Part shown: positions 1,380 through 61,200 of the stretch, in pieces
Numbering within the stretch: the first letter of the stretch is position 1
Layout: each line of letters starts with the position of its first letter
Assembly (NCBI GenBank): GCA_905178155.1
Contig: CAJINV010000005.1
Location: 3,469,902 to 3,533,901, forward strand
Length of the DNA: 64,000 nt
Direction: 5' to 3'
From: Amoebophrya sp. A120
Taxonomy: Eukaryota > Protista > Dinoflagellata
Made by a program: the position numbers and the translations under genes
The notes under the pieces: generated by a model
Database searches by the model: none
The model's input: only the letters and a program-made list of their open reading frames with translations
What the model was told of the DNA's origin: nothing

Positions 1380-4300
1380 TCATTTCAAAACAACCGCCAA
1401 CCTTCCGGGAGCGGCCATTTCCAAGGCGGTCGGCCGTGTATTCGGCATGACCTCCGCCACGCCGTGAAACAAATCCCTACACTTATTGCCGAACACCAGA
1501 GCATCGCCGGACTTAACCGTGACCAGCAACTGCCGGCCTGAAGGGCCGCCCGCTCCAATTGCTCCGCCCGCTTTGCTCGCCGCTAGTTTCGACGAGGACG
1601 TCGGCGTATTTGTTCCCTGCTGGTCTAGCGACTGGGTTAATGTGTAGGAGATCTTCACCGAGTCGCCGATGTTGATGAGCACAACGGGCACGTCCGCCGT
1701 GTCCACGATTTCCTCCTGCCGTACATCCACCGTCGCTTCGGCACCGTGGAATTCCGCCCAACAAACGTCGGGGGAGAAGTTCGGAAGTTGCTCTGTAGTA
1801 GTTGTTATGCATTGCAAAAGCACCCCACTGCACTAGTATAGATTGCATCACAAATTTTGGCAAGAGGGGAAGTGGAATTTGTAATGCTGCTTTCCCTATA
1901 GGAAAAACATTTGCCACGCACGACATTTGCAATTAGTACGAGTGCGATACTTTTGCACAGGATAGTTGTCTTGCTGATGCTTTTGGTCGTACTCACAGCA
2001 GACGTACTCGTGTCTTTCTTTCCCGGAGTAGTGGACGAGGCTGCTGCCAGTAGAGCCGCGGTATTTTTCTGCTTTTTTTTGCTATTTTTCTCGGCGTTTT
2101 TTGGCGAAGGTGCTACAGGGTCTTTCTGTTTGAGCAGCACAAGATCGTCCACCCGCTCTTCTTCTGACCCACTTAGAGTTTCTGCGTAGGGGACGAACCG
2201 GTCGACGATTTTGGGGATCGCGTTATTCGCCTCCTTGACCGCGTGCTTAAACCACTTTTCCAACAACCCCTTCGAAATGTCCCGAATTTCGTCCCCCGCT
2301 TCCCACCGGTTGAGCCGGAAATTGAAGACGAAGCTACCGTATGAAATGTAAAAGTGTCTGGGTCCTCTGGAAGAATGCAACTTGTCATGCTAAATCTGAA
2401 GCATGCAAAAATTTGTGTTGCATGATTACCAAAAGGTGTCCAGTTTTGACCAAGTCGGGAGGGAGTTTCTCATGCAGGATAGGCATGAGAGAGATCGCGC
2501 AGAATCTGTCATGCTAGGTCCTGCATTCCGGACCTCATGGGTCATGGAAAAGCTGCATGACAAATCGCGCATTTTTCCAGACCCAGACATTTTTGCATTT
2601 GATATACCGAGACTCATGCGACAAACCTTCGCGGTCTTGGTCTTCAGGAACTTCTTGTTAATATCGCTCGTTGTTGTATCAGCTTGATGTTGTTGTGCTT
2701 GTTTGTCAGTTGATGTTGTCGTGGTGGTCTTTGAAGAAGAACTACAGGCTGTCGTACTGACGTTGCTGACCTGTTCCACGAAAAACCCGCCGTTGTTTCG
2801 TTGTGCGTTGCAAGCATCGGACTTCGCAGCTAAATAGTCGATTATCTGCTGTTGCTCGTTGATCGGAATCAAGTCGTGCAAATGGATAAAACTCTCCGCC
2901 AATCTGGCCGACGCCGTGAAGTTCGCCTTAAAAATTTTGTTGTTATTACGCTCGAGTTTTGATGCTGTTGACTCGGAGTGGTGGTCCAGCAGGTTTTGGT
3001 ACAGCTTTTGGTCCGATTTATTTTCTGCACTCGTGGTGGTCGCAGCTGCTTTGCTGGCGCTGTTATTTTCCGCTTTTGTCACAGCGTGGTCTGCACCACT
3101 CGAGGCCGGTCGCTCCTCTCGGTAAATGCCGCCGGTTTTTAGGTCAAATCGCAGATCATGTCTGGCTTCGAACTGCTGCGGCAGGCCCTGCGCCGGCCAC
3201 TTCACCGGGAGCAACGCTTTTTGCAGCGTTTTCAGAGTGTCTCGCGGTATGTCCCAGAACTTGTGGTCGCCAGACATTTTGCAGGGGACCGCGAGCTTCC
3301 GCGGGGTTTCCAGCCAGAAGATGTAGTCGGAGCTGTTTTCTTCCAAGTGAATGTCCTCTGCATCGTCTAAATTGTCTTCCGCCGTTCCTGCGCTGCCTGG
3401 CTCCTGCTCACCTCCATCTGCATAATTCGCCCCGCTACTACTTTGGTCGTTCATCTTCACTTTCCGTATCCCAAGCAGTTCCTGCTTTCTCCTCACCTTG
3501 TAGCTTTCGTTATCCTCAATGGACACTAGATCGACGCAACCGAGGATGCACCCGCTCGGGTAGCCGAGGCCGGATTCTGAAGGAAAAAGTGGGAGTTTCG
3601 GGTAGTTTCCGTACAAATTTTTGTAGTAGTCCTCCATTTGCGACACCGTTTCGTCCTCCACGTCCTTCATCGCGGCGTGAATCCACAATCTCCCGCGGTT
3701 GAAATGCTTATTTTTCCCGTCACTGTTCCACCCCCGCCCTTCCGCGCGCTTGAACCCGGCGACAATCAGCGACGCCCAGGGTTGGTGCAGCGAGAGACAC
3801 TTCCCTTCGTCCAGCGCGTCCGGAAAGAGCGGCTTGGGGGCCGGGAAGTCCTGCTGTGCTTTCGTACCATTTCTACTACCTGGGTTGTCCTGTTGATCGA
3901 CGTCTTCCTCTCTACTGCCGGCAGGATTGTCGTTTCTATCTTGGTGGTTGCTGTTTTTATCTCCAAACAGCGCCGCCTGATTCAGCGCGTCGTCGAATTC
4001 TCTGTCCTCATATCTTGGTCGATAAGCTGCGGTAGAGGAACTGGAGCCGCCTTGCTGCTCTTGCCCTCTACTTTTACTGCCTGTTGCAGCGGGCCCGCCT
4101 GGAGAAGACGACTTGACAACAATATCCTTCAACTCATCCGAGTACTGTGGCCCCCCGGCAGACGAAGAAGTGGATGGGTTTTTATTATTGTTCCGCGCGT
4201 TATCGCGCAAACTTTTCTGCAACGATTCGTACAGGTCCTTTGCGGGACCGACCAAAGCGGGCACGGAGGCCCCGTGCACCTTCTCGTAGTCGATTTGCTT

Positions 4301-6569
4301 GTTGTTTCGGCCCAGCAAATCCGTGCTGTCGAGAAGCAATTTCGAGTCCACGTCGATAAACTGCTCCAATTTACTCGCGTTGTCGGATTCCAACTGCTTC
4401 CCATCCGACGACTCCACGATCGTCCGGCCAAAGAAATCAACCGTGAGGTGGATTTTCCGCTTTTCCAGCTCCCTCTGCTTCCGGAAAATTTTCTCTTGCT
4501 TCTTCGCCTGCTCACGTGCGGACTGGGACAGCCAGGGGTTCTGCGCTTCCAAATACCAATCAGTAGACTCGTCGAACACTTTGGTTCTCTTCTGCGATTC
4601 TCTATCGAACTGCACCAATTTCTTCGCTTTTTCCACGGCTTTCTGCAGGGAAGCGATCTCCTCATCCGTTTTGTCAAATGCGATTTTGTCCAGATCGTCG
4701 AAGATCAGCTCGTTGCCGCAAAAAAGGCAGGGTCCGTAGCCCTCCTCTTTGCAGTTAATCTTCCCGCAGTGCAGACAGTTGGACAAAACGCCGTGCTTCA
4801 TGCCCTGGCAAAGACAAATGCGCCGGTTCTCTTGCTGCTTCTTTGAAGCTTTGGTGTGGGAGCCGGAGGTAGAAGAACTAGTACCGGTGGCGGGGGCGCC
4901 TGTGAAGGAGGTGGTGAGGGAATGTTTGTAATACTGCTTGAGCTAGGTCTGGAACTAGATCTAGAAGTATGAGGGAACTGGAGCAGCGTACATTCATCGT
5001 GTTTATTGCTTAGCCAATTTAAAGAGCCTGCGAATCTTTGATGTTTCTTTATGTTTTATCCCGTATCAGACTGAAAACTACTCGAGAGCGGGACTGAGAT
5101 CCTAGGTCATCGTCTCCACGCAAAGTTTGTCTTGCAGAAACTGCAAGACAACTTAATACCCGGAAAGACGTACCAGAGACGGCCTCTCTTTCACAGTGTC
5201 TGTTGTAACTTTGTGTTGCAGACGATGCAAGACACTTACAACGGGCATGCTGGATATGCGTCAGAGGCTCCTTTCGTACGTGTTTTCAGCTCCTAGCTAC
5301 GCATCACAGGTTTTCTCCGTCATGCAGAGCAAACCTGTGATGCTGTTCCTCCAAGAAAGTTACACTTACACAGTTTTTTCCTTGCATAGCACATTCATCG
5401 TGTTTATTCTTGCGTAGCCAATTTAAAGAGCCTGCGGATCTTTGATGTTTATGTTTTATCCCGTTTCAGACTGAAAACTACTCGAGAGCGGGACTGAGAT
5501 CCTAGGTCATCGTCCCCAAGCAAAGTTTGTCCTGCAGAAACTGCAAGACAACTTAATACCCGGAAAGACGTACCAGAGACGGCCTCTCTTTCACAGTGTC
5601 TGTTGTCATCATGCGGGAAATTATTATTATAAACAAGCGTAATACTACAACTAGTGGGTGCTTACTACGTACAATTCTACATCAGCACTCTAGACCGCAA
5701 AAGACGCACAGGGCATCTACTTTGTTAATATGCCCATGCAAAATACAAACCACCAAAATTATAGAAGTACCAGTCGCCAGCGCTGTAGCCTGCGAGCTGC
5801 AGAAGAAGTTCTGGCTCGCCCGCTCCTGCCGCAGTTTCTCCATTCTTTCCTTCTCCTGCTTCAAGGCAAATTCGTGTTTTTGCCGTGCCTATCCTGTGCA
5901 AAAGTATCGTACTCGTAGTAAACGCAGTTATGCATTACAAATCTAGTTGGTTAGGTAAATCCGCATTACACCTCTAATTTGTAATTATGCTGAGCCAATT
6001 TGTATTGCGATTTGTACTAGTACGATACTTTTGCAGTGCATAGTGCCGTCATTCCCTTTAATTTCGGGAAGTTCGCCTCCATCTCTTTTGTGTGCTGTTT
6101 CGCGGCGTGCTCCTGTAGAAGTTCAATAGGCGAGAAGAGTTTTTGTACCACTACCACGGAGCGTTTGAGTTTGTATTCTGATTCTGACTGTGTGATCATG
6201 ATTCTCATCATGCAGCCATCACAGGCCGTCGAGCGAGGTTTCAATTTACTCCTGGATGTCATGAAGGTCGTCATCTGTGTAGTGTTGTAGATTGTAAACA
6301 CAGAGTGACTACGACGACGAGCGCGAAAATTCATTTCTTACCTGGATCACTTGCGCCTCGAATTTTTTGTGCACCAGATTTTGACAGAAGGTGTAAGCCT
6401 CTCGGTCTTCGACACCAAAACTGACCAAAAACTGCTGCAGGTCGTTGTTCTCCTTTTCCAGCACCATCGTGACCACCTCGTCGCCACAATCTCCCACCAT
6501 ACGCATCAGCTCCTCTTTCGCCCATTTCAAGACGGGAGGTGGCAGGGGCTGTTTGCTCGGGTCGGTCAT
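1380..6569 (-). CDS. TRIP4: TRIP4/ASC-1 homologue (PWI-like N-terminus, zf-C2HC5, ASCH) fused to a C-terminal AlkB-like 2OG-Fe(II) dioxygenase fold, ~1165 aa, 6 exons
   Basis: Exons 6569-6342, 6112-6043, 5884-5771, 4899-2605, 2334-1965, 1800-1380 join in frame (3498 nt). Zinc finger CLCQGMKHGVLSNCLHCGKINCKEEGYGPCLFCG; ASCH CLSLHQPWASLIVAGFKRAEGRGW...RGRLWIHAA...YPSGCILGCVDL; AlkB-like PDVCWAEF...PVVLINIGDS...SGDALVFG...LFHGV...PGRLAVVLK. GT-AG introns at 6113-6341 and 4900-5770, plus three introners. Confidence 0.88.
1806..1964. mobile_element. Introner E1 (TIR family A, TATNNNNTGCAAAAG), 159 bp
   Basis: TAT...ATA ends, direct repeat GTTGT at 1801-1805 and 1965-1969. Removal gives ...SISKTTTTEQLPNF in frame. 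Confidence 0.88.
2340..2604. mobile_element. Introner E2 (TIR family B, TATCAAATGYAAAARTGTCTGGGTCTGGAA), 265 bp
   Basis: Direct repeat TACCG at 2335-2339 and 2605-2609. Removal gives RMSLGSFVFNF. Near-identical to E4 in the reverse orientation. Confidence 0.93.
4988..5606. repeat. Intronic direct duplication (~218 bp; 4988-5206 and 5389-5606) flanking a half introner (5204-5388)
   Basis: Two near-identical copies of ACATTCATCGTGTTTATT...CACAGTGTCTGTTGT. The spacer ends in TACACTTACACAGTTTTTTCCTTGCATA, matching the right TIR of E5. Confidence 0.9.
5890..6042. mobile_element. Introner E3 (TIR family A), 153 bp
   Basis: TIR TGCAAAAGTATCGTACT, direct repeat GTGCC at 5885-5889 and 6043-6047. Removal gives KGMTARQKHEF; can be read as a GC-AG intron. 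Confidence 0.92.
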
Positions 6570-8143
6570 TTTTTTCGTGGTTTGTAAACGTCTCCGGTTG
6601 ATGTTGTTCTGATTGTTTTATCTGGCTGGAAAGGAAATGACAGAAGCCCGAGGACAAAAATTAGCGAGGAAAATATTCAACGAGAGGAGCAATTCGGTAA
6701 GTCGTAAGTGGCTAATTGTGAACAAAATCAAAGGAGCAATTCTTTCATAGCAACCAATGGTAATTGAAATTGTGAGCAGAGCGACGAATATCTTCCTAAA
6801 ATGCTATAATAGAAATGAAGAAAGATACACACCAAAAACGAAACTTTTACTTCCTACTTGAGCACTATGTATGTAAAAACTTCACAAATTTCAGAAGAAA
6901 CGATTGCGCCATGAACGAAGGGACTGAGATGAAATTGGATCGAAAAAATCATTGAGCTCGGATGCTGTCTTGAATTCTTCAGAACTTTGTCTTTGAGTGA
7001 GGCGACCCGGCACACTACATCTTCCTTGCAGAAGTTCCTGAGATCTTCACACTTGGAGCATAAGCAATTCATCTTGCTTGTTTCTTGGCCGTGCATTGTG
7101 GGATGCGGAACATGCTACATTCCCTATGAGAAGTACTCACGGCTGCGCTGCTAGGAGCGCATCAAATATCCACTTCTGCCTTCGCGGAAGCGTCAATCCT
7201 AGGCTAGAAGCACAAGAAAGTGGTGAAAAGAAATCAAATTATTCGCGGAAACGGAAACTGTTGTCCTGCTTATTTTCATTCTACATGGGCATCTTGTTGC
7301 ATGACTTTGTTGCCGTGTCGAAGTAGAGTCCTCTCATTGGGGAAGTGATGTGTTCGCGAAGATAGATTAGTACTGTTTACGTAAGTGGAGAACTGAAACG
7401 ACCGGAAATTGCGAAACGTTGTTAACAGCAGGAGCGTGGTTGTAATGGTATTTTCGAACATACGAAGAATTGGACTTCACTGTAATTAAAAAAAGGCACT
7501 CGGGTGAAAAACAGGTTAGCTTGGAGGTTTGGTGAACAATTTTGTGGAAGTTCCAAAAGCGGTAATAAGGGGTATCAGTAACAGGGTACGCAGCTTGAGT
7601 TTTCCTAGCTGATTTGTCAGCGGGCAGGGTCGGTCTGGAAGAACTAGATTAGTTCGTGTTGAAGAAGCAAGCAGGGTGGATAAAAAGTTGGTTAAAAAAA
7701 GGTAAAAAGGATTCTTCATCTCGCTTTCGTGTCGGAGGTGCGTGTCGGTGGAAAAATGATACGTATACACAGTTGCTGTAAAGAGGTTAAAAACGTAAAA
7801 ATCAGGGCGAAATAAACGAGGCTCGACGCCGACGCGGCCGTGATTGAAACGGCGAAAATAAATATGTGGCATTTGCAAAGCGCAGTTCAAACGCTGAAAC
7901 GTGTGAGATCTTTCCGAATCGTATTGTAAATAAATCTGTACGTTGAGTATGTTCGATACATTTAGGTGAGCAATAGCGAGGTAGTGAAACTGATAGAACC
8001 CCTAATTTTATTTCTTCATTTGATGCTCGAAGATCGAGACCGCGGTACATTGGTATGTAAAACTTCTTGCGCTTGACACCTCTACTATAAAGATCAAGCG
8101 TCTTGTTGGTCTTCCTCTTCAAAAGCAGCAGCAACGTGCTTTT

Positions 8144-11100
8144 TCATTTCGCCTGTTCTGTCGGAGAAGATTTGGTCGAGGTCACAGCCAAGCCGGCTTG
8201 CTGCAGTTTCTATCAAATGCAAAAATGTCTGGGTCTGGAAGAATGCGCGATTTGTCATGCAGCTTTTCCATGACCCATGAGGTCTGGAATGCAGGACCTA
8301 GCATGGCAGATTGTGCGCGATCTTTCTCATGCCTATCCTGCATGAGAAACTGCCTCCCGACTTGGTCAAAACTGGACGACTTGCTTTGGTAATCATGCAA
8401 CACAGATTTTTGAATGCTTCAGATTTAGCACGACAAGTTGCATTCTTCCAGACCCAGACACTTTTACATTTGATAGTTTCCACTCCTGGTCCAAAGGTTT
8501 CTCTTGCAAGACGAGCTCGAACGGCCAGCTCACCCCGATCTCCACCATCTTTCCCCTCGACAGAGCGTATGCAAGAAAAAAACTGTGTAAGTGTAACTCT
8601 GTGATGCAGAACGGGCAAAAGAGTTACATCTGTCATGCGTCACAGCCATGAAGTCCTCTTTTCATGTGTGTTTTTCCTTATAAGCCGCACATGACAGGTT
8701 TTCTCTGTCATGTAGAGCAAATTTCTGATGCTGTCAGCCAAAGAAAGATACACTTACACAGTTTTTTTCTTGCATAGAGCGGACGACCCAACTAGTACAT
8801 CGGAGCTGTGGTGATCTCCGCTGTCAAAACCGCCAGGATCCCCCTTGTAATACACCAAGTGAATGGTTTTTCTGGTGGACCCGAGCGACAAGCCGCCGAC
8901 GGTGCTGGAGACAAAAATCTCGTCGCCGCCGTACCGAGCGTTCCTCTGCAGCTCCTTTATCACACAGAAAAAAGCAGGCAAGTCACATTTGTATATGCAA
9001 AAGCAAACTAACAGACTAATCTGTCATGGGCGACCCCACAGCATGCATGGCGCTTAGGACATGCAAGGCAATTTTTTGTTTTTTTGTCTGTTTATTTTTG
9101 CATTACAAATATGACCTGCCTGCTTTTTTCTCTGGGTATCCTTCTCAAATTCCATACAGTCGTCGAAATCCCACAAGTTGTTCACGATAAACTCAATTTC
9201 GCTGTCCTGCACGTAGGGGTGGCGCCCGCGGATGGAAATCTGTAGTTCCCAAGATTTTGTTGTGATGCATGTATGACAACGGCGCATATGTGTGACGCAC
9301 ACGATGTGTTGACCTCATAGAAAATGCAAGAGACAGTGCGTAGAAATTCATACTCACACGGTGCTGGTCCTTGTGCTGCGTGAACAAACTGCAAATGCAA
9401 TACCTGTAACGGATCGTATTCGATTTCTTCATCCTGTACGTCTGACAAGTCGACAAAACCGCTGCTGTTCTTGTGGTCTGTGCAGTTGTTTACAAAATTC
9501 GCCTCATTCTGTTCGCCTTTCTCCTCTTCCGCTGCGACAAAAATGGCGTCAGCTTTGCTGTCTTCGTTTTGCGCCGTCTTGGTTCTGCTTACCTGCAAGA
9601 TGTTCCTTTCAAGATTGTTACAATCGTGCTTGTCGTCGTAGTCGTTTTCGTTAACCCAAAAGGTATAATCAAAATGAGCGGTTTCATTTTGCGTGCGTTT
9701 GCCAAACAACTGGAAAAAACACCACCAGCAAATCGATAATGGTCTACTTGCAATTATATTGTAATTCCACAAGAACACGCATGAAGAATCAAAGTAAGAG
9801 CACGAGTACGTTCTCCGCACGGCTCGTCGGTGAGATCACGTCATCACCCTCGGCGTGGTTCGCTTCTGGCGTCTCTCCCTCTAGTCCCGCAGCAAGAACT
9901 ACATCCTCCTCGCAAAGATTGTCGCCGCCTTCCACAGACTCCGGCTTGGGGGTTGGAAATTCGTCCTCCTGCTCCTCTTCCTCATCCTCCACGACTACAG
10001 GCTCATCTTGAGCCTCAGCATCCGCAGGTGGATCATCTTGTTCGACGTCCTCACTTGCTGCTGCACGAGCAAGCTCTTCTTCTCCCTCTTCCGCAGCAGC
10101 CGAGGCAGTCGCTTCTTTCACTGGATCCCACGGCAACGGTTTTAGCAATCGCTTCATTCCCGGGAAATACGCATAACCGGACTTCAATTGCGGGAAATTC
10201 GTTGAAGGAGTTGATGTCGACGTTGCTGCAATGGTCTTTGAACTACAAATGGAAGATACAGAAGGAGCTCCCAAGCGCGTTGATGTCGTGAAAGCTGTCG
10301 TCTGCGCCAGAGGGACAACATGCGATGCTGTAGATGGTGAAGACTTTTTGACACCTGTCAACGCAATCACTTCAAGCGGACTTTTCAACGACACACCATC
10401 CGCGACGTCTACTGGAGATTTCGAAGCAGTCACTGCGTCGCGAGCCGTGGTCCGGAGCTGGATATTTTATTGAAGTTATTTGACTTTCTTTGTTACACGC
10501 AGCTCCACCTACACGAGAGTCTCTAAGTCGCTGCATCACAATCAAAATTGTTGCCTTTTCATCCTCCAATCGGAACAATTATCTTCAATCAACAGATTCA
10601 TGAGTACCTTTTCCAAAAAGTTTGTCTGCAGCAACTCCGACGACCTAGCTGATGAGGTATTTTTCGAGGCGGCCGCGCCGGCGCTTGTACAACTGGAACT
10701 GGTGCCCGCTGTCACGACTACGCTACTAGACAAACTACCCATGGGCGCCGCCCAGGGCAACGCGCTCCGGAGTTTTTGCGCTGGATTCGCCTTCGTGCTC
10801 TCAAACACGTAGTTGTGTAAATTCTGGTGCAGCAACACCTTTGCCTGTTTAGTCGAACTCCTACTGCACTCGGCGGTAGTGGGGAGGTCGGGGGTTGAAA
10901 ATGGTGCGAGAACTTGTTCCGCAGCTTTGTCCTCACCGTCTCCATTCACAGAAGATTCCGGCGGAGCAACAGCATCAAGATGTTTCGACGCAGTAGAAGA
11001 AGAGTCCCCCACTTCAACAGGAAGAGCGACATCCTCTGTCTTTACCTGTGTGGAAGATGTTGTTCCTGGAGAAAAATGCAGCGACGACCTTACTGGCTGT

Positions 11101-12007: not shown

Positions 12008-15000
12008 CTACTTGTCGCCGGCCGTAGCCGCGAAATCAGTCGCGTGCTTCGCATACCAACTCGCCAGCACATCAGCCTCGATCCACTCCTTCGCGCCCCG
12101 GTTCTCAAAGAGATGCAACGTGCTGTCCGCCTCCGCAACTGACATGACGACAAACTTCAGCGGTTCGTCGGGTTCCAGTTCCTCACCGGCAACATCGGCA
12201 GAGCGAGGGATTTCTTGCGCCGAGTCCTCCTGCTCCAACGAGGACGTGGGACGTGCAGTTGCTGCAAGTCCTCCTCCAGTGCTGCGGGTCCCCGCTGTTC
12301 TGGGCCGCTCCTGCGTTGTAGTCCTACTGCTTTTGGCAACCAATCGCACCGCCGCACGGACGGCGTTCCTCACATGCTCCACGTCTTCATCTTCGACGGC
12401 CAATATGGCGCGAATGTTTAACCGGTCAGCCCACTTTTCGCAGCGCATCAGCATGTGCATCTCGGTTTGGAAAAGCCAGCGCCGCAACCCCGCCGAGGAC
12501 GTCCACGAAAACCTTTCGCGAAAGAGAAGGCTCTGATTTTGCGCCCAGGAGGACACGTCCACCACATCTGCCAGCACTAGCACTGGCATATGACCCGGAC
12601 CCAGGTCCTGACGCAGATTCGTGATGGCGCTCGTGGTAGCCTGACGCACCATGCCACCAAGCCGGCCCTTCCAGCCGTGCGCGACGCAGCCCGCGTTCTT
12701 TAGTGCGTATTCTTTTGCGACGTCCCACATGTGTACACTTTCGCCCTCCCCCGTGCACTCATGCCTCTTAAAGGAAAGCGGCGCCGCGGCAACAACGTTC
12801 TGGCGGGCGTCGGCAGTCTTGTTGTAGCCCTTCCCCGCCTCGTCCATCTGCGCACGCTCACCACCGGCAAAAGCAATCCCCTTTCGTTCCAGGAACAACG
12901 TGCCGGCCAGTTGCGCGTTGGTGAAGAGAATCGCAGAAACGACATGGTAAATGGCTGCCCCTGCAATCGCCCAAGGGCGTGGAAAAGTCAAGTCTTCACT
13001 TCTGGGCCTCAGCAGCTCAAGAGCTCGACTGGCAACCGTAGTCGGCGCGACCGTCTCGTTGGTATGTTCCTCAAGCAGATCCACAAACCACTGGAGGGCC
13101 GAAAAGCCCCAGAAACCAGAGTCCGCAGGAGGCGAAAGGCGGGAGCGCGCTTCCAGGGTTGATTGCGCCAAGGCGTAGTACTTCTCGTCCAGGTATGGTG
13201 GGTCAAACGCTTCCACAAATCTATACCACGGCCACCCGGTATCTTTCTTGCCAAGCGAGGACACTGGACTGCGCTTGATCAATTCCCAGTATTTCCGTGC
13301 CAGATTCCGGGCCTTCACTTCATCCACGACTGTGAGAAACTGTTCCCCCTTTGCGATCCTCTCCGGCATGGACGTTGCTTCCTGGACGTACCACTCGGAA
13401 GTAAAACTAGTGGACGCATTGTACATCGGGCGAGGAGACGAGGACCGAAGCTGAAGATCCCTGCCTCCACGCGCCGGCACTAGGTGACTCGCAGTATTAT
13501 CATCATCTCCACGAAGTGCATTCGCTGCGAAAACAGTTGCCACCCAGCTGAAAGGAGACCCGGAGAAGAATGCCTTCGGCGAGACGCACAGGACAGAGGT
13601 CCGCTGATGCCCCTTGATTTTTATTGTTTCAGATGATGAAGCTGCGTCTCTACTAGTATGATCTCCTCCTGCAGCTGCTGCCTCTTTCGCCGCCTGCAAG
13701 TCAGCACTGGACAAAGTCCCAACCTGGACGTCGTCGCTGCTCTGCTCTTGGAACTCACAGTTGTCCGCTTCCCCCTGCAGGACCTGTAAACTGATTTTCG
13801 CCGACCTGTTAAATTCGCGCGCGAGCTCTGCGTTGGCGATCCGAAGTTGCTCTGCAATAGGATTTATCAACTGCTGCAAATATCGTCGTGTCTGGGTCTG
13901 GAGAAATGCAAATACAGGACAAGTTGAAGTTCTTTTTCATGCCCGCGTCCAGAATTATTTAACGGCTGGGCCTGGGCCGCGACGCCCCTTCTGCTTGAAA
14001 AACCCGTAAAACGGTACTTACTAGCGGCACTAGCCACCTACTTAACAAACTCTAGCGGGGCGGAACACGTTTGGCAAACTCTCGGCGGAACGCAGGAGTT
14101 TGTCATGTTGAAAGGCTGAGGGCAGGGCAGGGCGCAGGAGTTTGTCATGCAGGTTTTGGACCCCCACCACATTAATGCATGGTGTGGAATTGTGCATGCG
14201 ACAGCGCTACAGGTTTGGCGCAGGAGGCCTCCTGATGCCTGTCCAACATGAGAAATACGCTATTTGCGTAGCAGTAAATGGACAACTTTTCTAGGCGCTC
14301 ACGCAACTACACAAGTTTTTGTGTATACAGAGGCTTTTCTTTTCTTTTTGTGTGGTTATCGTCACGCCCGATCCCCCCTGTACGAGGATGAGTCGGTAAG
14401 GCGCGACGGCCTTTATACAACTGCGACTGAGAGCTCGCCTCTTCTGCATCATAAGTTTGCGCCCACCTTCCAGACCGAGACAAACAATTTCCAATCCATA
14501 GGGTTTTTCCACCGGACGAAGTCGCAGATCTCGTTTTTGCACATGGATGCAAAGTCAGTAGTTGCCGCTTCACTCGTCGTCCGTTGTGAAGATCGTCGAC
14601 TTGTTGCTTTAGCGCCGGCCAACAAGAGAGGACCGCTTTCGACGTACGCCGCTGGCAGCGGCTGTTGATCCTGCTGCCCCTCGTCGCTGGACGACGCCAC
14701 TCCTGCGGCTTCATCGGAAAAGTACACGGACTGCGCGCTCGCGCGGAGATGATGGGGGTCAAGGTCATCCAGGTGTAGTTGCTGACCATCCAAGTTGTAG
14801 GCGCGTGGTCGTGTGGTCTCACCTTCCGCGGACTCCCGGTAGTTCTTCCTCGTGCTAGGCGGTTCGAGGAAAGCTACGCCATACTGGTCCACCCCGACAG
14901 CGACCTTTACGGGAGAACTTTGTGACGTTCTTGCAGCGTCGAGCGCAGGTGCTGGCGGTAGAGAACCGCTTTCGACGCTTTGCAGCAGCACTGGGCCAGA

Positions 15001-15912: not shown

Positions 15913-17357
15913 TTATGAGTTACTGGTACTAGTAGCGACCGGTAGCCCGCTCTTTTCATATTCCAGCCAACTTCCATCGAAAAGCGACACTGTCGGTTTT
16001 GCCTTCCCCTCATGCGCGCACACCACCTCCGCGGCCAAGGCAACAATACAGGCTGTCATGCCGGAGCCGCAGGTAACGACGAAGGGCTTCTCTACATCGA
16101 CATTCTTTGTGTTAAAAATTTTTTTCAATTCTCCCGGCGATTTCAATTTCGTTCGCTTTGTCGGTGCAGATGATATCATCTTCAGACCGTCCTTCGTAGA
16201 AGTTGTAGTTGCTTCCTCGTGGTCCCTCACGTCCAACAACTCCAGAAACGGCACATTTGTTGAATTCGGAATGTGTCCACTCCGCATTCCGGCCCTCGGC
16301 TCCGCCGCTTCTCCCGTGAACCGCCCAGCCGGACGGGCGTCCAGGATCGTCGTGGTATCTTGTAGAGAGGTTCTTTCCTGCTCGTCAGTAGTGCAGCTGG
16401 TGATTTCCTGAATATCCGCCAGGGATGCGACGGATTTGTTTTCCTTTTCGGCGTTCGTTTGTTCCGCAGATGAGGTTGTTCCTCCAACAGTTGTGTACTC
16501 CTCCACTGGTTTCGCGACTGTGGTTCCAGTTGTTCTGGCAGTTGTACCAGCTACACTCCCTTCAGCAACGTCACCCCCGGCCTCCACCCACTCCGGCAAG
16601 CCACCGTCCAACACAAAAGTGTTCCTATGCCCAAAGAACCGCAGCATGTACCAAGCCCGCGCCGCCGAAAACAAGCCGTGCCGGTCGTAACAGACGATCG
16701 AGTCTTCCGTGCTGATGTTCAAAGACCGCATGTAGTTTTCGAACACGTCTCTACTCGGCATCATGTGGGGTAGTTCGCTTTTCTCGTCCGCGCACTCGTC
16801 CAGGTCGAGAAAGGCGGAATTTGGTACTATTCGGTTGAAGTTTTGGTAAAGCGACTTCGCCGACTCGGCCGCGAACGGGCAAGCGAAGGGGGAGTTGGGC
16901 AAATACCACGTCGCATCGACGAAGACGAGCGTGGGGGTATCAAATGTAAAAATGTCTGGGTCTGGAAGATTGCCAGGTTTGTCATGCACATTTTGCATGA
17001 CTCCTGATGTCTGTGATGCATGCCCTAGCATCACAGATTTTGTGAGGGCTTCCTGATGCCTATACCGCATGACAAATGCTCTTTCCGTGTAGCAAAACTT
17101 GGACAGGACTCTCTTTGCTGCTCATGCAATACAGATTTTTTTAGGATCCAAAATCAGCATGACAAGTTGAATCCTTCCAGACCCAGACACTTTTACAGTT
17201 GATAGGGGGCATCGCGGGTTGATGTAGTTCCAGCAGGAGACGAGGCAGTCGCAGACGCGGCCATGGAAGCCGCTAACTTTTCCTTTGCCCATTGCACAGA
17301 CACTAACGGTGAGGACCCGGGTGGGGGAATGAGCGAGGACGTCATTTTTTTCATCAT
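15913..17357 (-). CDS. MPST: 3-mercaptopyruvate sulfurtransferase (tandem rhodanese), 390 aa
   Basis: PLVSVQWAKEKL...LVFVDATWYLP, LPHMMPS, SAARAWYMLRFFGH..VLDGGLPEW, ILDARPAGRFTG..AEPRAGMRSGHIP, active-site loop CGSGMTAC, LFDGSWLEY. One introner; exons 17357-17205 and 16932-15913. Confidence 0.95.
16938..17204. mobile_element. Introner E6 (TIR family B, diverged interior), 267 bp
   Basis: Direct repeat GGGGG at 16933-16937 and 17205-17209. Removal gives STRDAPTLVFVD. Confidence 0.93.
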
Positions 17358-42993: not shown

Positions 42994-44574
42994 TCAGCCC
43001 CCCGGAATCTTCTGGCTCTTCTCCTGCTGCAAGGTGACTGACACTTCCGCTCCCGTTTTCTTCCGCACAAAGGGTTTTGTCAAGTGCCACTTCTCCTTGT
43101 CGCCGTCGCTGAGAACCCCGTTTTCGGTCGGCAAAGTCCCTCCGTCCGGCCCCGGTTCGTCTATTATTGCCGGGGTAAACATCTTCCCAGACAGCTGCGC
43201 CTCTTCACTAGTTTCGGCTCCACTCCCGCCGCGCCTCTTCGACAACAAGCTTCCGGGGATTCGTTCCGGCACCCCCAGAGGCACGAGCACCTGCCCCCGC
43301 CCCGGCCGGAACCCGATCGCCCTTATCCTTTCCTTCGGCGGTAGGATCGGAATACACGGTGCCGCCGCGATTTGCGCAGCGGACAAACCCATGCACGGCT
43401 CCCCCCACGGCTCTCCCTCGTCTAACACCATGTGGACCGTGGCGCCGCGGTTGTAGTACTCGACTAGAACGTCCAAGGTGTGCACGCTGGTGCTGTAGTC
43501 CGTTTCGTTGTTCGGTTTTCCCGCCCGAGGTGTCTCCCACCCCGCTGGTAGATGTGTCACGTTCGAGGAGAAAGCGGAAATCGCAAAGGTACCGTTCACA
43601 CTGGAGTCGTTGTTGTCGTAGTGGTCCGTGTTAAACGAATACTCCATCCCGGAAAATCCAATCAACACGATCGCAAACCCGGTGCCGTTGATCGCCGACG
43701 GTTGCACGTACTGTATCTTCGACCGGTCGATCACCCAGCTCTGCCCGTCCAGCGCGTAGGTTCGGAAGGGTGAGGCCCGGAGTTCATTTCCCTCCCCTTC
43801 GCAGCTGTAGTAGTCGTGTTCCGGCGCCAGGTTCACCTCGCCCTCGCAGGTCCCGAGGTTCTCCAGATCCGGATCGCGCATCACAATGTTGTTGATTTTC
43901 CACTGCATCGGACGCAGGAACGGATTGTAACCGAGGGTCGGAATCATATCTGAGAGTTTTGTACAATAGGAAGATTTGTGGCTGCGTATAGCGCTTGTGA
44001 TCAATACTTGTGCCTGACATCAAACATGCATATGCAAATATGATGACTATACCAAAGTGCAAAAACTATACGTGTGTGTATCCTGATCGTGGGCGTTCCG
44101 TACCGGCAGTCATGCTCTGGGTTGTTACACGGCATAAACCCAAACTTCTCCCACCTGTCGTTCGGTGCTAACGTTAGATTTTTCCCCCACGGCATGAGAT
44201 ACCCGTCCAACATGGCGTGTATCTTTGTGCGGTTCACCGGGTCCCGGTAGAACTGCACAAGATGGGGTCTCCCATCCGCTATCACGTCGTTGTTCAGCGG
44301 TATCGATTCGTCATCGTACGCTTCGCTCGGATCGATGAAGTACTCCGTGTAATTGACATCGTCGCGCTATAAGAGTGCACCACTTCGTCCCCTCCCCCTC
44401 ATTTTGCGATGCAAAATACCAAATCCATTCCTTGCCTGCCTTTCCTTTTGGCACTTTTTGCATGACAGGTTTTCTTGGCAGCTCAAACAGAACTAAAGTC
44501 ATGGGTCGTGAATTCGTCATGCAAAACCTGCACTCTTGCCGGCGCTCGTATCGCTGCTCATGCCATGCATACAA

Positions 44575-44609
<35 letters not shown>

Positions 44610-47453
44610 GCGTCGAAAATGTCTTATTGGCCGAACGCTTACTGCGTGACCTAGTGCTTCCATACAAAAACACTTTCCGCTGGCGCACCCTCTTGGGTAT
44701 CCTAAAGCGAGTTACACCGTCCGGCGTTGTTCTCACTTTGTAACGAGGACCCCGGGATGCGTACCTGTTGGCGTCTCCCAAATGAAGGGGAGTTGAAGTT
44801 GTGCACCCTCATACGGCCTCCATGTGCCGAATCGTTCTCCGCGTCACCAAAAATCGGTACCGCTGGTGGTGCTCGTCGCCCTTCGCCACGCTCATCTCTT
44901 TCATCCTCTTCGTGAAATTCACGTCCTCACTGTCGAACGTGAAGGTGTGCGTCGTCGTCCGGTTGAACTCCGGCCCACTCAGGTCGGTGGTGTTGGTCCA
45001 AATTTGAAACGCCGCACCGGAATCAAACATTTCGCTGCCCCAGTGCGAGTGCGCACTCAACTCGTTGATGTTCAGTGCGGTGAAAAAGACCTCGATCCGG
45101 TCGATGTCGATCTTCGGCCAGAGAAAGTCCGGTCGTTCCGGGCGGTACCAGAGGGACAACCCCGGTACGGCGTGCATGTCCAAGTGACGAAACTCGGTCC
45201 GCCAGTCCGGTTTGCGGGCGAGAAAGTAGGAGCCCTCGACCGGGTCTATGCCGCCAAGGTGCTCGTCTTCGGAGAAGGACATCGGTTCTATCTCGTCCCA
45301 GTAAACGTCTGCGGGCTTGTTCAGAGTGGCGTTGGTGTAGACTAAGAAATCCAAAGGGGGTGGGGACGTTGTGGTCGTCGTCGGGCGCTTGGTATTGATG
45401 TAGGAGTCGTACTTGAGGGAGGTCATGCAAGTGCATTTGTCCGTGAAAGCGTAGGAGGGATCGCAACTGTTGTAGACCGGCCAAAACCTGTACAGCTGCG
45501 CGTTCCAGTCGTGGTAGCCACCGCTGCCTTCCCTGTGTTGTGTTTTTATCATGCGCTACTTATTGCATGATTGGCAGCTGCATCGACTTGTCATGCGTAG
45601 GCCGCGCCTTTAGAGAATAGATCAAGATGGAAGTAAAGCTCCTTATCACACGACTTGATATAATACCACACAGTAAACCCCGCGCAGTTGTCGGAATCCT
45701 GCATGCACTTCGCTATTCCTTCATTTCGTGCGTGTTCACCACTTGACTGCTCAATCACCCGTCTCAGTGGGTATTCCGAGTCAAAGCACATCTGTCTGTG
45801 CTTAAAAGCGTACTCACCCGCGCCCGCACCTGCTTTGATGTTCAGCTTTTTCCTTGCTTTCTCCTGCGCGGCGAGAACGGCTTCGGTTTCAACGACGTTT
45901 TCGCTTTCTCCTTGTGCTTCTTCGGCTTCAATCTTGTGTTTGTGGTTTTTCTGCGACGATAACCTCGACGCAGCTTCCCCTTCCGCTGCTCTAGTGCTTT
46001 TTGCAGTTTCTAATTCTGCGCTTTTGCTCACTAACGATGGATCTGGAGGCTCTTTGACGGATTGTGTGACTACAGAATCACTGTTCGTTTCGCTTCTCAT
46101 CCTCTGCGCACCACGACCGCCACCAGCTCTTATCTCCTCGTCTTTGCTTTTCACATGTGCTTTTAACTTTTCCAGTGATGTAACGCCCTCCTGTTCGTGA
46201 TCCTTCTCCGCATGAGGATGCAATTCTGCTTCATGATCATGCCCCCCTGTGGTCGGTTTCTCTTTCTTCTGTTTATCATGCTCGGTATTAATCGCGGAAC
46301 CGTGGTCCTCCTGCCCTCCTACCACCACCCCACCTTTCTGGAGGTACTCCTTCAGCTGCTGTCTCCGGTGCAAGATTTCGCTGTACGAGACCTGGTTCGC
46401 GTTCGTTCCGCCAGCCCTGTGCACCTCTTCCCCCGGTTTTCTCCTCGCGATTTTTAGCGAGATGGTTTTCTCGGTCAGGGAGGGGTCGTCCGCGAAATCT
46501 AAATTGTCCCGAAAGATTAAATCGTCCTCTTCTTCCTGCGTCAGAGGCGGTAACTCGCTGTCGATGATATCAGATCTTGACGGAAGATCTTCATACACAC
46601 CATCAGCATCATCGGCCCACAGGTTTTCCGGCAGCTGCGCCGAGTTCATTTTCGAGATCTGCTCCTGCCACAACCGCTCCTCCTTGATCTCCTCTTCGTG
46701 GCCCCATCCTTGACTACTGGAAGACGGGTAGCTGCCGTGCTTTTTTCTGCCGATAATCGCGGGGCCGGCTTTCAAAACGGTGTCTCCTGGGGTGGTCCTT
46801 GGATAGCTTGTGACCGAAGTGGTTGCGAGGAAGTAGAAAGTTGAATGTTTGAAAACGAGCGCACAAGAAGCAAGGACGGCAGCTTTCGTAGTAGGTCGAG
46901 TGAAAAGCTGCAAATGCGCTGTTGTCGCTCCGGGAGGTCGTCGTCGACGGCGGCGACGGAACCGCGAGGGGTGATCGACGGCTTTTGGCGTTGGCCTCGA
47001 AGAATTTCTACCAACTTGAACTTTCATCGTCGTGGCGACCGAGCTCACCACCGCAAATGTGGTTGTGTCTTTGCCTTTGCTGTTTGGTCTTCTTCTCCTC
47101 CTCCGGTTTTTCAGGGTTCTTGTTTCCTCGTTTATTTCGTTTTGAATTTGCAATTTGGACGCACGTCGTCGCCCGCGCAACGCCGACCACTGCGTGCTGT
47201 TGCCCACCGCGTCTTCGTATTTTGTGGTTTTTTGACGCGAGCTGTTACAACGGCTGCGGGTCCTGGAAGGAGATGAGGGTGTACTGCTCGAAGTAGAGCA
47301 ATGGTGCGAGCTTGTGCTTGCGCTCGAGGGATGGCTTGGCGAACTAAACATCCTATGTTGTCTTCCCGGTACGCGGGTAGGGCCGTCCGTTCCTTCATCG
47401 CTCGCCGTGTTGCTGGAGCCCGCAGCTCGTCGCCTTTCGGCAACCAAAGTCAA
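42994..47453 (-). CDS. Hypothetical, probably membrane-anchored or secreted protein (~1,250-1,280 aa) with a Cys-containing PAN/apple-like segment
   Basis: Exons ~47453-45603, 45555-44815, 44553-44541, 44362-44072, 43949-42994 join in frame. Hydrophobic stretch AAVLASCALVF..STFYFLA, many NxS/T sequons, KCMQDSDNCAGFTVW. Start codon uncertain. Confidence 0.65.
44368..44540. mobile_element. Introner E8, 173 bp, one terminus decayed
   Basis: TIR AAGAGTGCA; left end TAT, right end GCC; direct repeat CGCGC/GGCGC (4/5 match). Removal gives RYERDDVNY. Confidence 0.8.
44575..44607. repeat. (ATG)11 microsatellite in intron 44554-44814
   Basis: Read directly. Confidence 0.95.
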
Positions 47454-55900: not shown

Positions 55901-57371
55901 GCGGGCATCGTGGTGGCGGGCGCATCACCAGCCGCAGTATTCCTGCTGGTTCGCGGTGTTTTGCTTCTACTTCTCACGTCACTGCTTCTACCTCCTGCAG
56001 TTGCTCCTGTCGCGCCACTGTTTCGACCTACTGCCGCCGCTCCGGACGAGGATGAGGAGGAAGAGGAGGATGATCCACTTCTTTGCGGCGGCGGGGGCTG
56101 CTGTTGGACCGCATGTAGTTGACCATGAGCTCCTCCAGCGCCGGGTGCTGCAGCAGCGGTTCCACCCACCGCCCCTCCGGTCATCCCCGAATCTACACGG
56201 CTTTTCACATGCCTGTAGTGACCACTCGACGCCCCGCCCCCGCCGCCGCAGCTGACCGACCGGGCCCTTGTGTGAAACTGCTGGTGGTTCAGCGCGTTTT
56301 GGATCCGGGCGAGGGACGGCTTGTTGTTTTCCTTGTTGGAGATGCTGGTCGCGGTAATTTTACCAGGAGTAGGGTCGCAGCTAGTGCCGCTTATTTCTCC
56401 GACCGGTGTTGATGTTGTGCTGGCAGGTCCTGCAGCTACTGACGCCAACTCCCCCGGCTTCACGTTCTTCAGTGTTTGCTGGCTCTCGGGCAAGGAAAGG
56501 ACAGCCTCCTCGGCTCCTGCCGGATCCGTATGCACTGCAAAAGTATCGCACTCGTACGAAAAGTAAATCTATATGCGTCGCAATTATGCATCACAAATCT
56601 GGCCGCCGCGTTCTGCATGAATATAAACGACATACTTCAATTTTGTTCTTGAGAAGGTTTGTCATGCGATTTGTACGTAGTACAACACTCTTGCATTGCA
56701 TACTCCGGTTGCAATAAAGATGTTTCTCCACCCGCCTGCTCACCACGCGCCACCATTCCGGAACCAGGGGCCCACGTGGCGCGCTGCGCCGGAAGGTTGT
56801 GCTCAGCATCGGACGCTTGCTGAGGTTGGACCTATTTTTTCATGGTTTCAGAACGAGACTAGATCAGTTTGAAATAAAATCGACTGTGCACCATCCGAAG
56901 TTCGAGTTCTAATGTTGCTAATGGTTGCCGTGCAGTATAGGTCCTGAAGAGATGAACTTCTTTAGCATGAGTTGGGTTGCATTCCATTAGATCCAAAATT
57001 TTGGTTTTCACCCACCATGCACGTACCTTCCTGAGCTGGGGATGCTTCCGTTTCAACAAAGCCAGCCGGCTGGTTGTCGGTGTCTTGCTCACTGGTAATA
57101 TTTCGACCGGTCTTGGTGGTGCGGTAGGAGCTTCGGGTGGCGACGTGGCAGTTGTGCCAACTACGGGAGCAGCTGGTGCCCCAGGAACTACAGTGTCCTG
57201 CTCTTGATGTAGTTGCGATATTAAGAAAGCCGCTCCAGCATCATCTCCTTCTCCGGCCGGTGGTCTGCTGCTGGCATTGTTCGCGTTCCAGTGAACCAGA
57301 ACTGGACCTGCGTCGAGAAGCGGCGCTGGGTGGTGGTCCATCCCGGCCACAACCGCGTCCACGATTTCCAT
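52979..57371 (-). CDS. Zinc finger C2HC (zf-C2HC_2, ZC2HC1/FAM164-like motif) protein, ~1176 aa, 5 exons
   Basis: Exons 57371-57027, 56831-56703, 56523-54652, 54452-53879, 53589-52979 join in frame (3531 nt). RIACPHCNRNFNKEAAARHIPRC. Confidence 0.82.
56529..56702. mobile_element. Introner E9 (TIR family A), 174 bp
   Basis: TATGCACTGCAAAAGT...ACTCTTGCATTGCATA; direct repeat ATCCG/CTCCG (4/5 match). Removal gives LLQP(D/E)PAGA. Confidence 0.88.
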
Positions 57372-58278
57372 GCAATGATCCTCGATGAGCAAGCAGCTTT
57401 CTCGTACTACTAGCTACTTCTCCTACAAGTTTCTAGTGCAATTTTGGTGTTCGTGTTTCTCTTCTTTCGATGATAAAAATATGCAAATCTGCGAATTCTC
57501 AGATGGATGGGCAACACGTACAGGCACACGGTAAACTTTGAAGATTCAACATGATTCTATCACAGTGCTCACTCTTTTCACTCTCTTCCGTGTGAGTGCC
57601 ACACCACACACACCCGTGGTCCTTTGATGGAGAAACTCAATCGCTCGAACACCCGAAACGCTTCTACTCCTCATGGTGCATCTCGAATACCTCTCGATTC
57701 TGAAAGAATTTCTCGATGAAAACGAACAGAAGACGTAAGACAAGCCACGTGCTGGTGTCAACTACGTGAGGATGCCAGCACCCTCGCGCCTAACTCGACC
57801 AGGAACGATTCAAATTGGTCGTGTATGTACTGGTACTGGCAACATGTGCATCAACAAAAGTAGTTTACAAGGTCGTCTTTTGCTTTATGCTTGTTTTCTT
57901 GCTCTCCAAGCTTTTTCATCATGAAAAACAATGTTATGGTCTACAGGCAGAAAAGACACGGCGGAAATAAAACCCCAGAAATGTGTTGTAGTTTCATCAA
58001 CATGATTGGAGAGGCTTTTCTTGAGTTTTCCTACTACTTATGCTTCCAGTTGTTGTGGTGCAGAAGATCTACTAGTACTGTGGAAGATCATACAGTGTCG
58101 TAGTCGCTCACGATTGACTGAAACTTCTCATGCGTGGTGTTATTTGTTTGCGGGTTGGGATTGTGAAAAAGGAATTGGAGACATAATCATAAACAGAAAC
58201 TGCATGCATATGCTTATCTAAAAAAATCCACGTAACTCTAAAGGATGTGAAAACGAAGCAGTCCTATTCGATATCGAC

Positions 58279-61200
58279 TCAAACTCTGTCCTCGACTGGC
58301 GACACCGGAGGGAGCGCTGCGCGGTAATCGTAGTCTTCATCGATTGCAGCTTTTTGCTGCTGTTGCAGTACGAATTCTGCAGTCCGATTCGAGGGATCGG
58401 CATCTTGATCGTGTTCCTGCTCCCCCGATAGCTGTGCAACTGGTTCGCGGCTACTGGCCCCACCTGACTGGTGCCCCCGCAACACAAATTCCTTCGCGTT
58501 TTTCAGCGCCAGCTTTCCCATCGGGTGCACCGTGTACAGTAACTGCCCGACGTGGCACATCTCGTGGTAGATCTGCAAGTCCACGCTCAGCCCACACTTC
58601 GCCATCAACTGCGCTAACTCGACGTGAATGTCCCGGAGCACCTCCGTTTCGCCGGACTGGATCAGGATCTCGATGGGCTTATTAACGACCTGCTTTTTTC
58701 GTCCGACTTCATCTTGTGGCGAAGAAATTGTACTACCAGTCGTAGCAGTACTACTAGCGGGGGGACGTTCTTGTGGTCTTCTATCCGACAAGAAGTTCTG
58801 AAACGCGTACACACTGGACAGCACTGGGTCCTCGAAAGCCCTGTTGCAACTTCTGGCAATCCCGGAAGCAAGCATTTTCACCGTTTCCGGGTGAATCATG
58901 TCAGTTTGCCGGTTGGACACAAAACTCGGCGTTTTCTTTTCGTTCGCACTTTGGTCGGCCCAGGGGGAGAACAGAATCGCTTTGCCCGGGAGGGCGAGTT
59001 TGTTGTTCTGCTTTTTCATCATGATCTTCGGAGCTGCACCGATTTTTGTGCTCGCCGGTTCATCTTTGCACTGCTGAACAAGCGTCAACGGGGCGATTGT
59101 TGCGTTGATGTTGGGAGAAGCATTTTCGTTCGCGCTGTTCTCTATGTCAATGAGACCACCGACGTCTCCGTCACCGTCTAAGAGAATGCCGTCCTCTGGT
59201 ACAACCAGATCCTCTCGTGGAGAGCAGAACTCGAGGGATTTCTGGTCATCCTCATCTTCCGAAAAGAAATCCTTCTCGTCCTGCTCCAACAATCCCAACT
59301 TGAGCAATAACTGCACGCACAGCTGCCCGCCGGCGGAATCTCCGACCAAAATGATGTTTTCGCAGGGCACAGATAACTCCTCTATCCTGATTAAAAACGT
59401 CCCCACACCAGAGTCAAGATGGGGATTTTGCAACACAAACCTAGGAGTTTTAGGAGTCACGCATGACAAGTTTCAGTCCGTAAGGTAGTGCAAGTTAGCA
59501 AGGAAAGCCGCATGACAAATCGACCTTCTGATCCTGTTTACAGCATTACAAGTTCCCAAACACGATTGAAAACGCCTGTAATGGGGTTGCGCATCACAAA
59601 CGTTCCTGTCATGGCAAATCTGCATGACAACTCTGGGGTGGGGGCGTTTTTACATTTGATATCCTCGACCAGAAACCTGTAGACCTGCAGCCCATCTTCC
59701 ACCGCACACTCCACATCGAAATCCGGCGGTCTTCTGAAATTCGCCAGGAGCGCCACAAAATCACTGCCGCAATTGCGGACCAACCAGGCCAGCAGCGCGG
59801 TGTTCGCGCTGTCCGCGTCGCAAAACACGAACGCGCCGCCGTGAAAGTAGAGAAAAACCTTCTGCCGCGCGGGGTCGGGGATCACGAGTTTTCCGAGTTC
59901 GAGATTTGAGTAGACTTTTTTCTTATCGAAGTTTTTCTTTTCCGCTTCTTCTTTCGACCAGAGCCAGTAGTGCCGGACGTGGGCTTCGGCGACGGAGGTT
60001 GTTGTCGTTGTACTGATAGGAGGCTTTGACTTTGTAGTAGTACCTTTATTACCAGTTGCAGCTCTTCCCGTCGGGGATCCAGTGCCAGTACCAGTAGCAG
60101 TACTTGGAGACAGTAATTGCCTGATATTATCATCGTCGTTGGTATCAGCGATGGATCCCGACTGGAGTTTCTTCGCGAACGCGATACTGCTCGTAATCCC
60201 GTTATCCGAGACGCTATGAAAGCCTCAGGTTGGAAATCCTCAAAGTGGAAATATTTTGTAATGCAAGAAAACGACTCCCGTTGAATCGCCATTTCTAGTC
60301 GGCGCATGACAAATTTTCCGGGCACTCAAAGCATGTCTGTCATGCTAGGTAGGCAAAGGGGTGCCCTTCTCTCGTGCTAATCAGCAGCCCAATTCTGAAC
60401 CCCTAGCAGGACAATAGTCGGTCTCCATTGCGTCCTCTGCAATACAGTCTTTTTTGCCTTGCATTTCATGCATCACAAATTATTTCCACTTTGAGGATTT
60501 CCATTCTGAGGCTTTCATAGACGCACGGGTGGGCGGACTCCACAAACCCGCACTCCATCCAAAAAGACGCTTTCTTATCAAAAGAAAAAAGTTCGTCACG
60601 ATCACTCATGGGCATTTTTGCAATACAAAATTGTCTGTCATGCGTAAAAATGCATCACAGCCACACTTCATAAGGGATTTCCCTAGTGTTTCTGCAATAC
60701 AAGGAGAAGTTGTGATGCTAAAAAAATTTGTAATGCAAAACCTGCAACTTGGTGACTGTGACAAACTTTTTTCTCTCCATATTTCTGGAGTTTGCTGTAG
60801 TAGGGGAAAAGAAAGCTAGGGAGCGTCATGTCGGTCAGGAAGCGGTAGAGCCGGACGTTCAGTCTGGACAGCGGATCTAGTCGTAACGTTTTCAAGGCCG
60901 TGAACAACAGCCGGAGCAGCAAAACGTGGTAGAACCCGTTCTGCCGGTCCTGCTGGGAGAGTAAAATGTCTACAGGCTCGGGAATGCGGTAGTGGTACAG
61001 TTTCTCCAAGTCAAATTCTTGCTCGAAGGGAAGAGATTCAGGTTGGTCTTCTTTGCTCTTACTTCGGTTTCGCTTCACTTTACTGCTGTTACGCTCGTCT
61101 CCCGCCACAGTCGACCTGTCGTCATTTTTACCAACAGCAAGAGCACCACCAGCATTGTTCTGAGACTGAGGATTTTTACCACGATGGTGATCTTCATCAT

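Follow-up and report, generated by a model that had tools for sequence, protein, structure and literature searches.

How can transposon-like insertions be removed from coding exons when they offer no GT-AG boundary? The question is raised by a 64,000-nucleotide stretch of Amoebophrya sp. A120 (contig CAJINV010000005.1, positions 3,469,902 to 3,533,901; the window), in which 13 elements with terminal inverted repeats (TIRs), belonging to the introners of this organism, interrupt the exons of seven genes on the minus strand. We found that a direct repeat of uniform length, 5 bp, flanks each of them, that contig joints show elements leaving together with exactly one repeat length, and that imperfect repeats point to a common cut register.

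Exonic elements and their removal

An initial annotation, made from the letters alone, had counted 13 elements in seven genes, and this count was borne out. A strict scan for (N5)TAT...ATA(N5) with a TIR retrieved 10 elements, with no TAT/TAT match in any of the five shuffles used as control, and E6, E8 and E9 were added through a motif scan and reading. The elements are as follows, "element+5" denoting removal of the element plus 5 bp.

E1, 1806..1964, minus strand: 159 bp; repeat GTTGT; in the ASC-1/TRIP4-AlkB fusion gene; element+5 fits annotated protein P0203; same element in metagenome locus L049
E2, 2340..2604, minus strand: 265 bp; repeat TACCG; in a large family of ~262 bp with E4 and E7; matches P0203; a contig piece begins at 2605
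E3, 5890..6042, minus strand: 153 bp; repeat GTGCC; E1 family; matches P0203
E4, 8211..8475, minus strand: 265 bp; repeat GTTTC; in a gene of 637 amino acids; summed length test
E5, 8568..8776, minus strand: 209 bp; repeat GAGCG; summed length test
E6, 8958..9138, minus strand: 181 bp; repeat TCCTT; sense 5' end TAC, not TAT; summed length test
E7, 16938..17204, minus strand: 267 bp; repeat GGGGG; in a rhodanese/sulfurtransferase gene; element+5, not element+2, gives P0001 exactly; a contig piece ends at 16932
E8, 26978..27110, minus strand: 133 bp; repeat GCAGC; between open reading frames (ORFs) of 704 and 2930 codons; basis, frame only
E9, 44368..44813, minus strand: 446 bp; repeats CGCGC/CGGCC (3/5); TAT...ATA intact; joint 44362>44814, 451 nt, 3/4 runs
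E10, 56529..56702, minus strand: 174 bp; repeats ATCCG/CTCCG (4/5); joint 56524>56704, 179 nt, 3/4 runs
E11, 59383..59661, minus strand: 279 bp; repeat TCCTC; in an alpha/beta hydrolase gene; 284-nt joint, 2/4 runs
E12, 60215..60519, minus strand: 305 bp; repeat GACGC; TIR of 57 nt; 310-nt joint, 3/4 runs
E13, 60576..60781, minus strand: 206 bp; repeat TTTCT; 211-nt joint, 3/4 runs

The flanking repeat is 5 bp long at 13/13 elements and perfect at 11, as first described; the two imperfect cases, both given as 4/5, proved to be one of 4/5 (E10) and one of 3/5 (E9). Intact TAT...ATA ends are present in 12 elements rather than the 11 reported before, E6 being the exception. The earlier size range of 133-305 bp also has to be widened, since the element at 44368 measures 446 bp by its joint; a shorter inner piece had probably been taken for it. 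The full pattern TAT-N7-AAA occurs at one end at least in 11/13 elements (E9 and E12 lack it), an internal motif, GCAT[GCT]ACA, is found in all 13, and each element is predicted to fold end to end into a hairpin (z -2.5 to -11.5).

Joints were read from assembled contigs of four runs from one sample; that these runs are RNA is a guess. The 11 contig joints in 43800-61200 comprise six GT-AG introns and five elements (E9-E13), and at all five of the latter element+5 was removed and no GT-AG was used, as the initial annotation would have it for transcripts. For E1-E7, removal was judged by summed length, contig ends or annotated proteins, not by joints. Across E4, E5 and E6, 1051 nt are removed: a model deleting element+5 at each, together with three GT-AG introns, is 2964 nt long, as is the spanning contig (2964 nt). 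At E1, E2, E3 and E7 the annotated A120 proteins agree with element+5. The frame is kept at 13/13 by this deletion, as had been claimed, but it is not decisive by itself because deleting element+2 also restores every frame; element+2, a cut one base beyond each end, was excluded by the contig joints and the annotated proteins. Removing the element with exactly one length of the repeat gives back the host sequence. No equivalent register yields GT-AG at any of the 13 elements.

Repeat length, internal motif and probable cut register

A wider sample was drawn from metagenome contigs (150 loci, 412 kb) of a conspecific assembly and is biased to one family. A single end pattern matched at least 152 stretches, 78 loci among the matches listed share one assembly prefix, and the pattern was not found in viral contigs. 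The assembly is taken as conspecific because locus L049 shares 99.8-100% identity with exons of the window. Summed DNA-contig depth reached 2.8e5 in element-holding bins of the window vs about 50 elsewhere.

From this sample 253 TIR pairs were chosen by their ends alone, TAT being required and the repeat not. A perfect 5-bp repeat flanked 195 of them, 37 had one mismatch and 21 had more; perfect repeats of 3 bp (4) and of 4 bp (1) were rare, so that in this sample the proviso in the initial annotation, repeats of mostly 3 bp genome-wide, does not apply. Outside the seed family (117 pairs) there were 75 perfect 5-bp repeats, and 101 with at most one mismatch. GCAT[GCT]ACA occurred in 248/253 elements vs 5.5 in shuffled sequence (113/117 outside the seed family), pointing inwards and placed symmetrically, mostly 33-45 nt from either end. 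The ends read TAT(C/G)...(C/G)ATA, with C at position 4 in 382/506.

To examine base composition, 108 perfect-repeat elements were oriented by codon usage out of 239 with at most two mismatches, leaving aside those with an unclear strand or an imperfect repeat. The repeat bases fit the coding background at 5/5 positions (p 0.10-0.44, n=108), and GT-AG in any register was found in 6/108 vs 4.4+-2.0 for random repeats. The terminal dinucleotides are thus not selected, and the absence of GT-AG in the window, which holds at all registers, is no surprise: random repeats yield it about 4 times in 100. Removal independent of terminal dinucleotides, as proposed in the initial annotation, stands. The 5' and 3' end types are similar, so that orientation seems to be free. 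A palindromic G...C target suggested by the window was rejected in the wider set (45/195 vs 49.3 expected), and neither the position nor the direction of repeat mismatches carried a signal (18 and 34 elements).

One family also came up elsewhere. In the raw RNA run X9, 28 reads match only elements of the E2/E4/E7 family (2340-2604, 8211-8475, 16938-17204), 26 of them at 90-95% identity. This degree of identity suggests that a diverged organism with the same species label shares the family, though families are described as strain-specific.

Where, then, do the cuts fall? An imperfect repeat reveals which copy survives, and the 5' cut can be expressed as an offset relative to the element start. 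At E10 the downstream copy is kept at repeat position 5, giving an offset of -1 or less, and at E9 the upstream copy is kept at positions 2 and 3, giving -2 or more. Three elements of the wider sample add lower bounds. At 1778-2081 of locus L026, in a conserved hydratase-dehydrogenase, the possible residues are H, N or K, of which K is present in the annotated A120 protein and in two orthologues (at least -1, that is, -1 or 0); at 3305-3560 of the same locus the offset is at least -4; and at 5413-5565 of L032 a 44%-identical homologue has F (again -1 or 0). If one register holds, these five imperfect repeats leave only -1. The common register is therefore likely to be N|TAT...ATA-NNNN|, starting one base before TAT and ending four after ATA. 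Most of the 44 imperfect repeats listed were uninformative on the register, no further annotated protein bearing on it was found among 20 exon frames searched, and a Pfam scan of 12 flanking frames gave no usable residue.

At this register N-TAT matches native donors at +2 to +4, which read GTA(T/C). In the native donor set, for which 8/17 introns were slid to GT by eye, GTA was present in 17/17, a pyrimidine at +4 in 13/17 and G at +5 in 3/17. A target of the form NNAGG would turn register -1 into GT-AG: element 3001-3264 of L026, with repeat CCAGG, indeed reads as a perfect GT-AG intron there, and elements of its type may account for the 15% of canonical A120 introns that reportedly have inverted and direct repeats. 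Enrichment of such targets is weak (7/155 vs 3.3 expected, 0 antisense, 3/108 in the strict set).

Spread of the elements and mechanism of removal

The elements show the features of miniature inverted-repeat transposable elements (MITEs), namely TIRs, a target duplication of fixed length, small size, no coding capacity and many copies, and they probably multiplied as such by means of a single type of transposase. One repeat length, one end type and a shared motif together suggest a common mobilising or binding factor, which fits the initial proposal that a single transposase serves all families. A transposase of the DDE class, cutting with a 5-bp stagger, would bind the TAT...ATA ends and the GCAT[GCT]ACA motif. 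Integrases produce 5-bp duplications. A literature search for Copia-type TA...TA ends with such duplications returned nothing citable. The candidate for this transposase would be the Copia-integrase-like ORF carried by family 38 of A120, which is flanked by TIRs (Gozashti 2025).

For removal, we lean towards a relaxed (modified) U2-type spliceosome whose 3' cut is set by distance. N-U-A-U would be read as a donor with a relaxed +1; the intron would begin one base ahead of TAT and end four bases past ATA; and the 3' site, having no AG, would be measured off from the base of the TIR hairpin or from a protein bound there. With ends that are inverted repeats, a donor would be present whichever way the element is inserted. 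Published data are compatible with this (Farhat 2021, PMC7789003). In Table S4 of that study, 9/9 predominant non-canonical pairs of A120 begin N-T and 9/9 of A25 begin TT, and A25 repeats start with TTA and two purines; 83/89 spliceosome proteins were found, with U1 snRNA and snRNP27 not detected. Loss of SNRNP27K accompanies +4U donors in yeasts (PMC10581693), and a tunicate U2 spliceosome processes 95% non-GT/AG introns (bioRxiv 2025.08.15.670264). More tentatively, and at somewhat worse than even chances, we propose a general rule: a spliceosome able to do without the G at the start and the AG at the end would take the transposon end as donor (N-T-A-T in A120, T-T-A-R-R in A25) and cut four bases past the hairpin base, and this one rule would let a whole transposon superfamily, 5-bp-duplicating and marked by GCAT[GCT]ACA, enter any exon in either orientation without trace in the mRNA.

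Several observations weigh against this picture. The GT(GC)-AG ends expected of U2-type introns are not seen, with GT-AG in 0/13 window elements and at the random level in the wider set. Selection for G before TAT was rejected, G at +1 being not enriched (25/108 vs 30.7 expected); AG at the 3' end is not clearly enriched (12/108 vs 8.2 expected); and a spliceosome with no terminal preference whatever is hard to imagine. Position +5 is mostly not G, since end position 4 is mostly C. TAT is the transposon end anyway, and it may fit the donors by coincidence, for which we estimate odds of roughly 1 in 30 when the register is chosen beforehand; E6 appears to be removed though its 5' end is TAC. 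The upper bound on the register (-1 or earlier) comes from one element, E10, in the one-sample contigs of presumed RNA, and the single register is an assumption where Farhat 2021 calls sites variable relative to the hairpin. Published border counts are not independent proof, because aligner placement inside the repeats decides them. As to mobility, no transposase was found in 34 window frames or six long members; Farhat 2021 reports none for A120 and argues against general mobilisation by transposase; and no empty site was seen at one orthologous locus, where E1 and E2 are filled in both assemblies.

The elements might keep their MITE origin and be removed by a non-spliceosomal, structure-specific nuclease and a ligase acting at defined spacings from the TIR stem, a mechanism put forward for the nonconventional introns of euglenids. 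This would suit the lack of selection on either terminal dinucleotide, the strong predicted end-to-end hairpins and the undetected U1 snRNA, and the 1-nt/4-nt asymmetry of the proposed register parallels the Euglena code N3-CDG...CH'G-N5-6, which also has the longer 3' spacer (PMC12501133). We nevertheless rate it as rather unlikely: the probable 5' end fits native donors at +2 to +4, the different ends of A25 also read N-T-A, the CAG/CTG motif and exon-start purine of Euglena are absent here, and the tunicate spliceosome provides a precedent. The initial annotation had removal guided by the hairpin or a bound protein rather than by splice signals; given the donor match of TAT at the proposed register, that view is probably half right.

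A hairpin could also guide removal with no fixed register, the cut sliding within the repeat and the agreement of the five constraints being chance. Farhat 2021 does report variable sites, 1-5 nt from the repeats, and the register is constrained by only five elements, its upper bound by one. As 5/5 constraints fit one offset, and as element+5 was removed at every tested site, which a sliding cut could achieve only by coupling both cuts, we hold this to be improbable. Still less credible, and in our judgement very improbable, is the absence of RNA splicing altogether, with the joints arising as template switches of reverse transcriptase over hairpins with direct repeats or by DNA excision in some life stage. 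A hairpin with a short direct repeat is the classic setting of false introns, the contigs reveal neither molecule nor strand, and, where DNA runs were compared, repeat-to-repeat joints of one DNA run took up the 15 joints listed, with 759 further ones outside that list. Against this, the elements carry stops or frameshifts that would break conserved proteins unless removed, contigs of the DNA runs continue from exon into elements, E1 and E2 are present in a second assembly, and the same RNA-type contigs also skip GT-AG introns.

If the fixed register is true, it provides exact positions for the sequencing of lariats or circles and for proper annotation of these genomes; for the removal of tens of thousands of A120 elements, it turns a border described as 'variable, unknown' into a rule that RNA-seq can check. 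Should the spliceosome be responsible, the elements show how far splice-site recognition relaxes under transposon pressure; should it not be, Amoebophrya would be a second lineage with Euglena-like splicing.

Host genes, relics and comparison with known systems

All genes modelled in the window lie on the minus strand, like the unidirectional clusters described for the genus. Pfam matches among the seven element-bearing genes include the ASC-1/AlkB fusion, a rhodanese and an alpha/beta hydrolase; the 637-amino-acid gene holding E4 had no Pfam match in four exon frames scanned. The fusion gene (window 1380-6570) joins ASC-1/TRIP4 (zf-C2HC5, ASCH) to an AlkB-like 2OG-Fe(II) domain, an architecture common to many matches. 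GC-rich blocks at about 34700-36400, 40800-42300 and 47900-50250 gave no Pfam match in the scanned frames, unlike the flanking genes, and are possibly repeats or other mobile DNA. Between genes, at 34470-34688, there is an inverted repeat (27 nt, 81%) unlike those of the elements.

The introner motif was also found inside three of nine GT-AG introns (9240-9403, 10458-10607 and 45533-45666), and some canonical introns may be decayed introners. Two degenerate elements add to the inventory, the first of which the initial annotation had missed.

EX, 13881..14500, minus strand: composite degenerate 14th element; putative boundaries; pieces resembling the ends of E2/E4/E7 and one end similar to that of E6
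One-ended relic of the E5 family, 5204..5388, minus strand: located in the ASC-1 gene, in a GT-AG intron of 871 nt

EX has no clear 5-bp repeat, and the longest frame is restored by deleting 620 or 623 nt, not by element+5. Contig depth is near zero over 13742-14295, which overlaps EX. EX offers a test case for what the removal machinery requires. A direct duplication of ~217 bp (4990-5607) flanks the relic, and it may be the trace of one-ended transposition or of a repair.

One exon of the window shows 100% identity, over the query, to the annotated A120 protein P0001, and P0203 and P0001 are wholly accounted for by window exons. Given this identity and the description of A120 introners in Farhat 2021, the elements are a rediscovery of a published class. 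The initial annotation was right to name Amoebophrya introners and understated what had been published: inverted repeats that start with TAT, then ~7 nt and AAA, hairpins, a length of about 240 nt, very many copies, direct repeats of 3-5 nt including one 5-bp example, and non-canonical borders (PMC7789003). All five marks of the class were found here, namely the A120 genome, TAT inverted repeats, direct repeats within 3-5 nt, genomic repetition, and removal at non-canonical borders (5/5 joints, their RNA status guessed), and there is no difference in kind. The element class, the TAT end and the non-canonical borders are thus already published. Where Farhat 2021 gives repeats of 3-5 nt and an undefined border, what is added here is the uniform 5-bp repeat, its unselected bases, the GCAT[GCT]ACA motif across families and one common, if inferred, cut register. 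The fixed register, uniform repeat and internal motif are not stated in the literature searched, including passages of PMC11282704, PMC11453091 and PMC12005148, though Figures 3 and S19-S25 of Farhat 2021 and Roy et al. 2023 may hold some of this.

The A120 families of Gozashti 2025 (PMC12130899) resemble the present elements in being mostly 'TIR DNA, Unknown', in length and in having non-conventional sites in about half of cases; family 38 combines TIRs with a region, Copia-like, for a putative transposase. Automated calls of target-site duplications there range from 2 to 6, in 41 of 58 A120 rows of Dataset S2, vs the uniform 5 bp found here. Euglenid nonconventional introns (PMC12501133, PMC11282704) share an end-joining TIR-like stem, which all 13 window elements have by predicted fold, as well as frequent direct repeats, a proposed MITE origin, fixed spacing from stem motif to cut and a longer 3' spacer. 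They differ in having CAG/CTG at +4/-8 and a purine at the exon start, where our elements have TAT/ATA and no purine bias (60/108 vs 59.5 expected at the 3' exon start). Introns of Fritillaria borealis (bioRxiv 2025.08.15.670264; PMC11282704) are likewise MITE-derived, non-GT/AG and handled by a modified U2 spliceosome, but keep fixed ends, AG-AC and AG-AT, whereas our elements leave the first base and the last two unconstrained. Finally, the introners of Micromonas and Aureococcus (PMC11282704, PMC7789003) are also non-autonomous TIR transposons with target duplication and clean splicing; they carry or co-opt canonical splice sites, and the elements of the A120 window do not.

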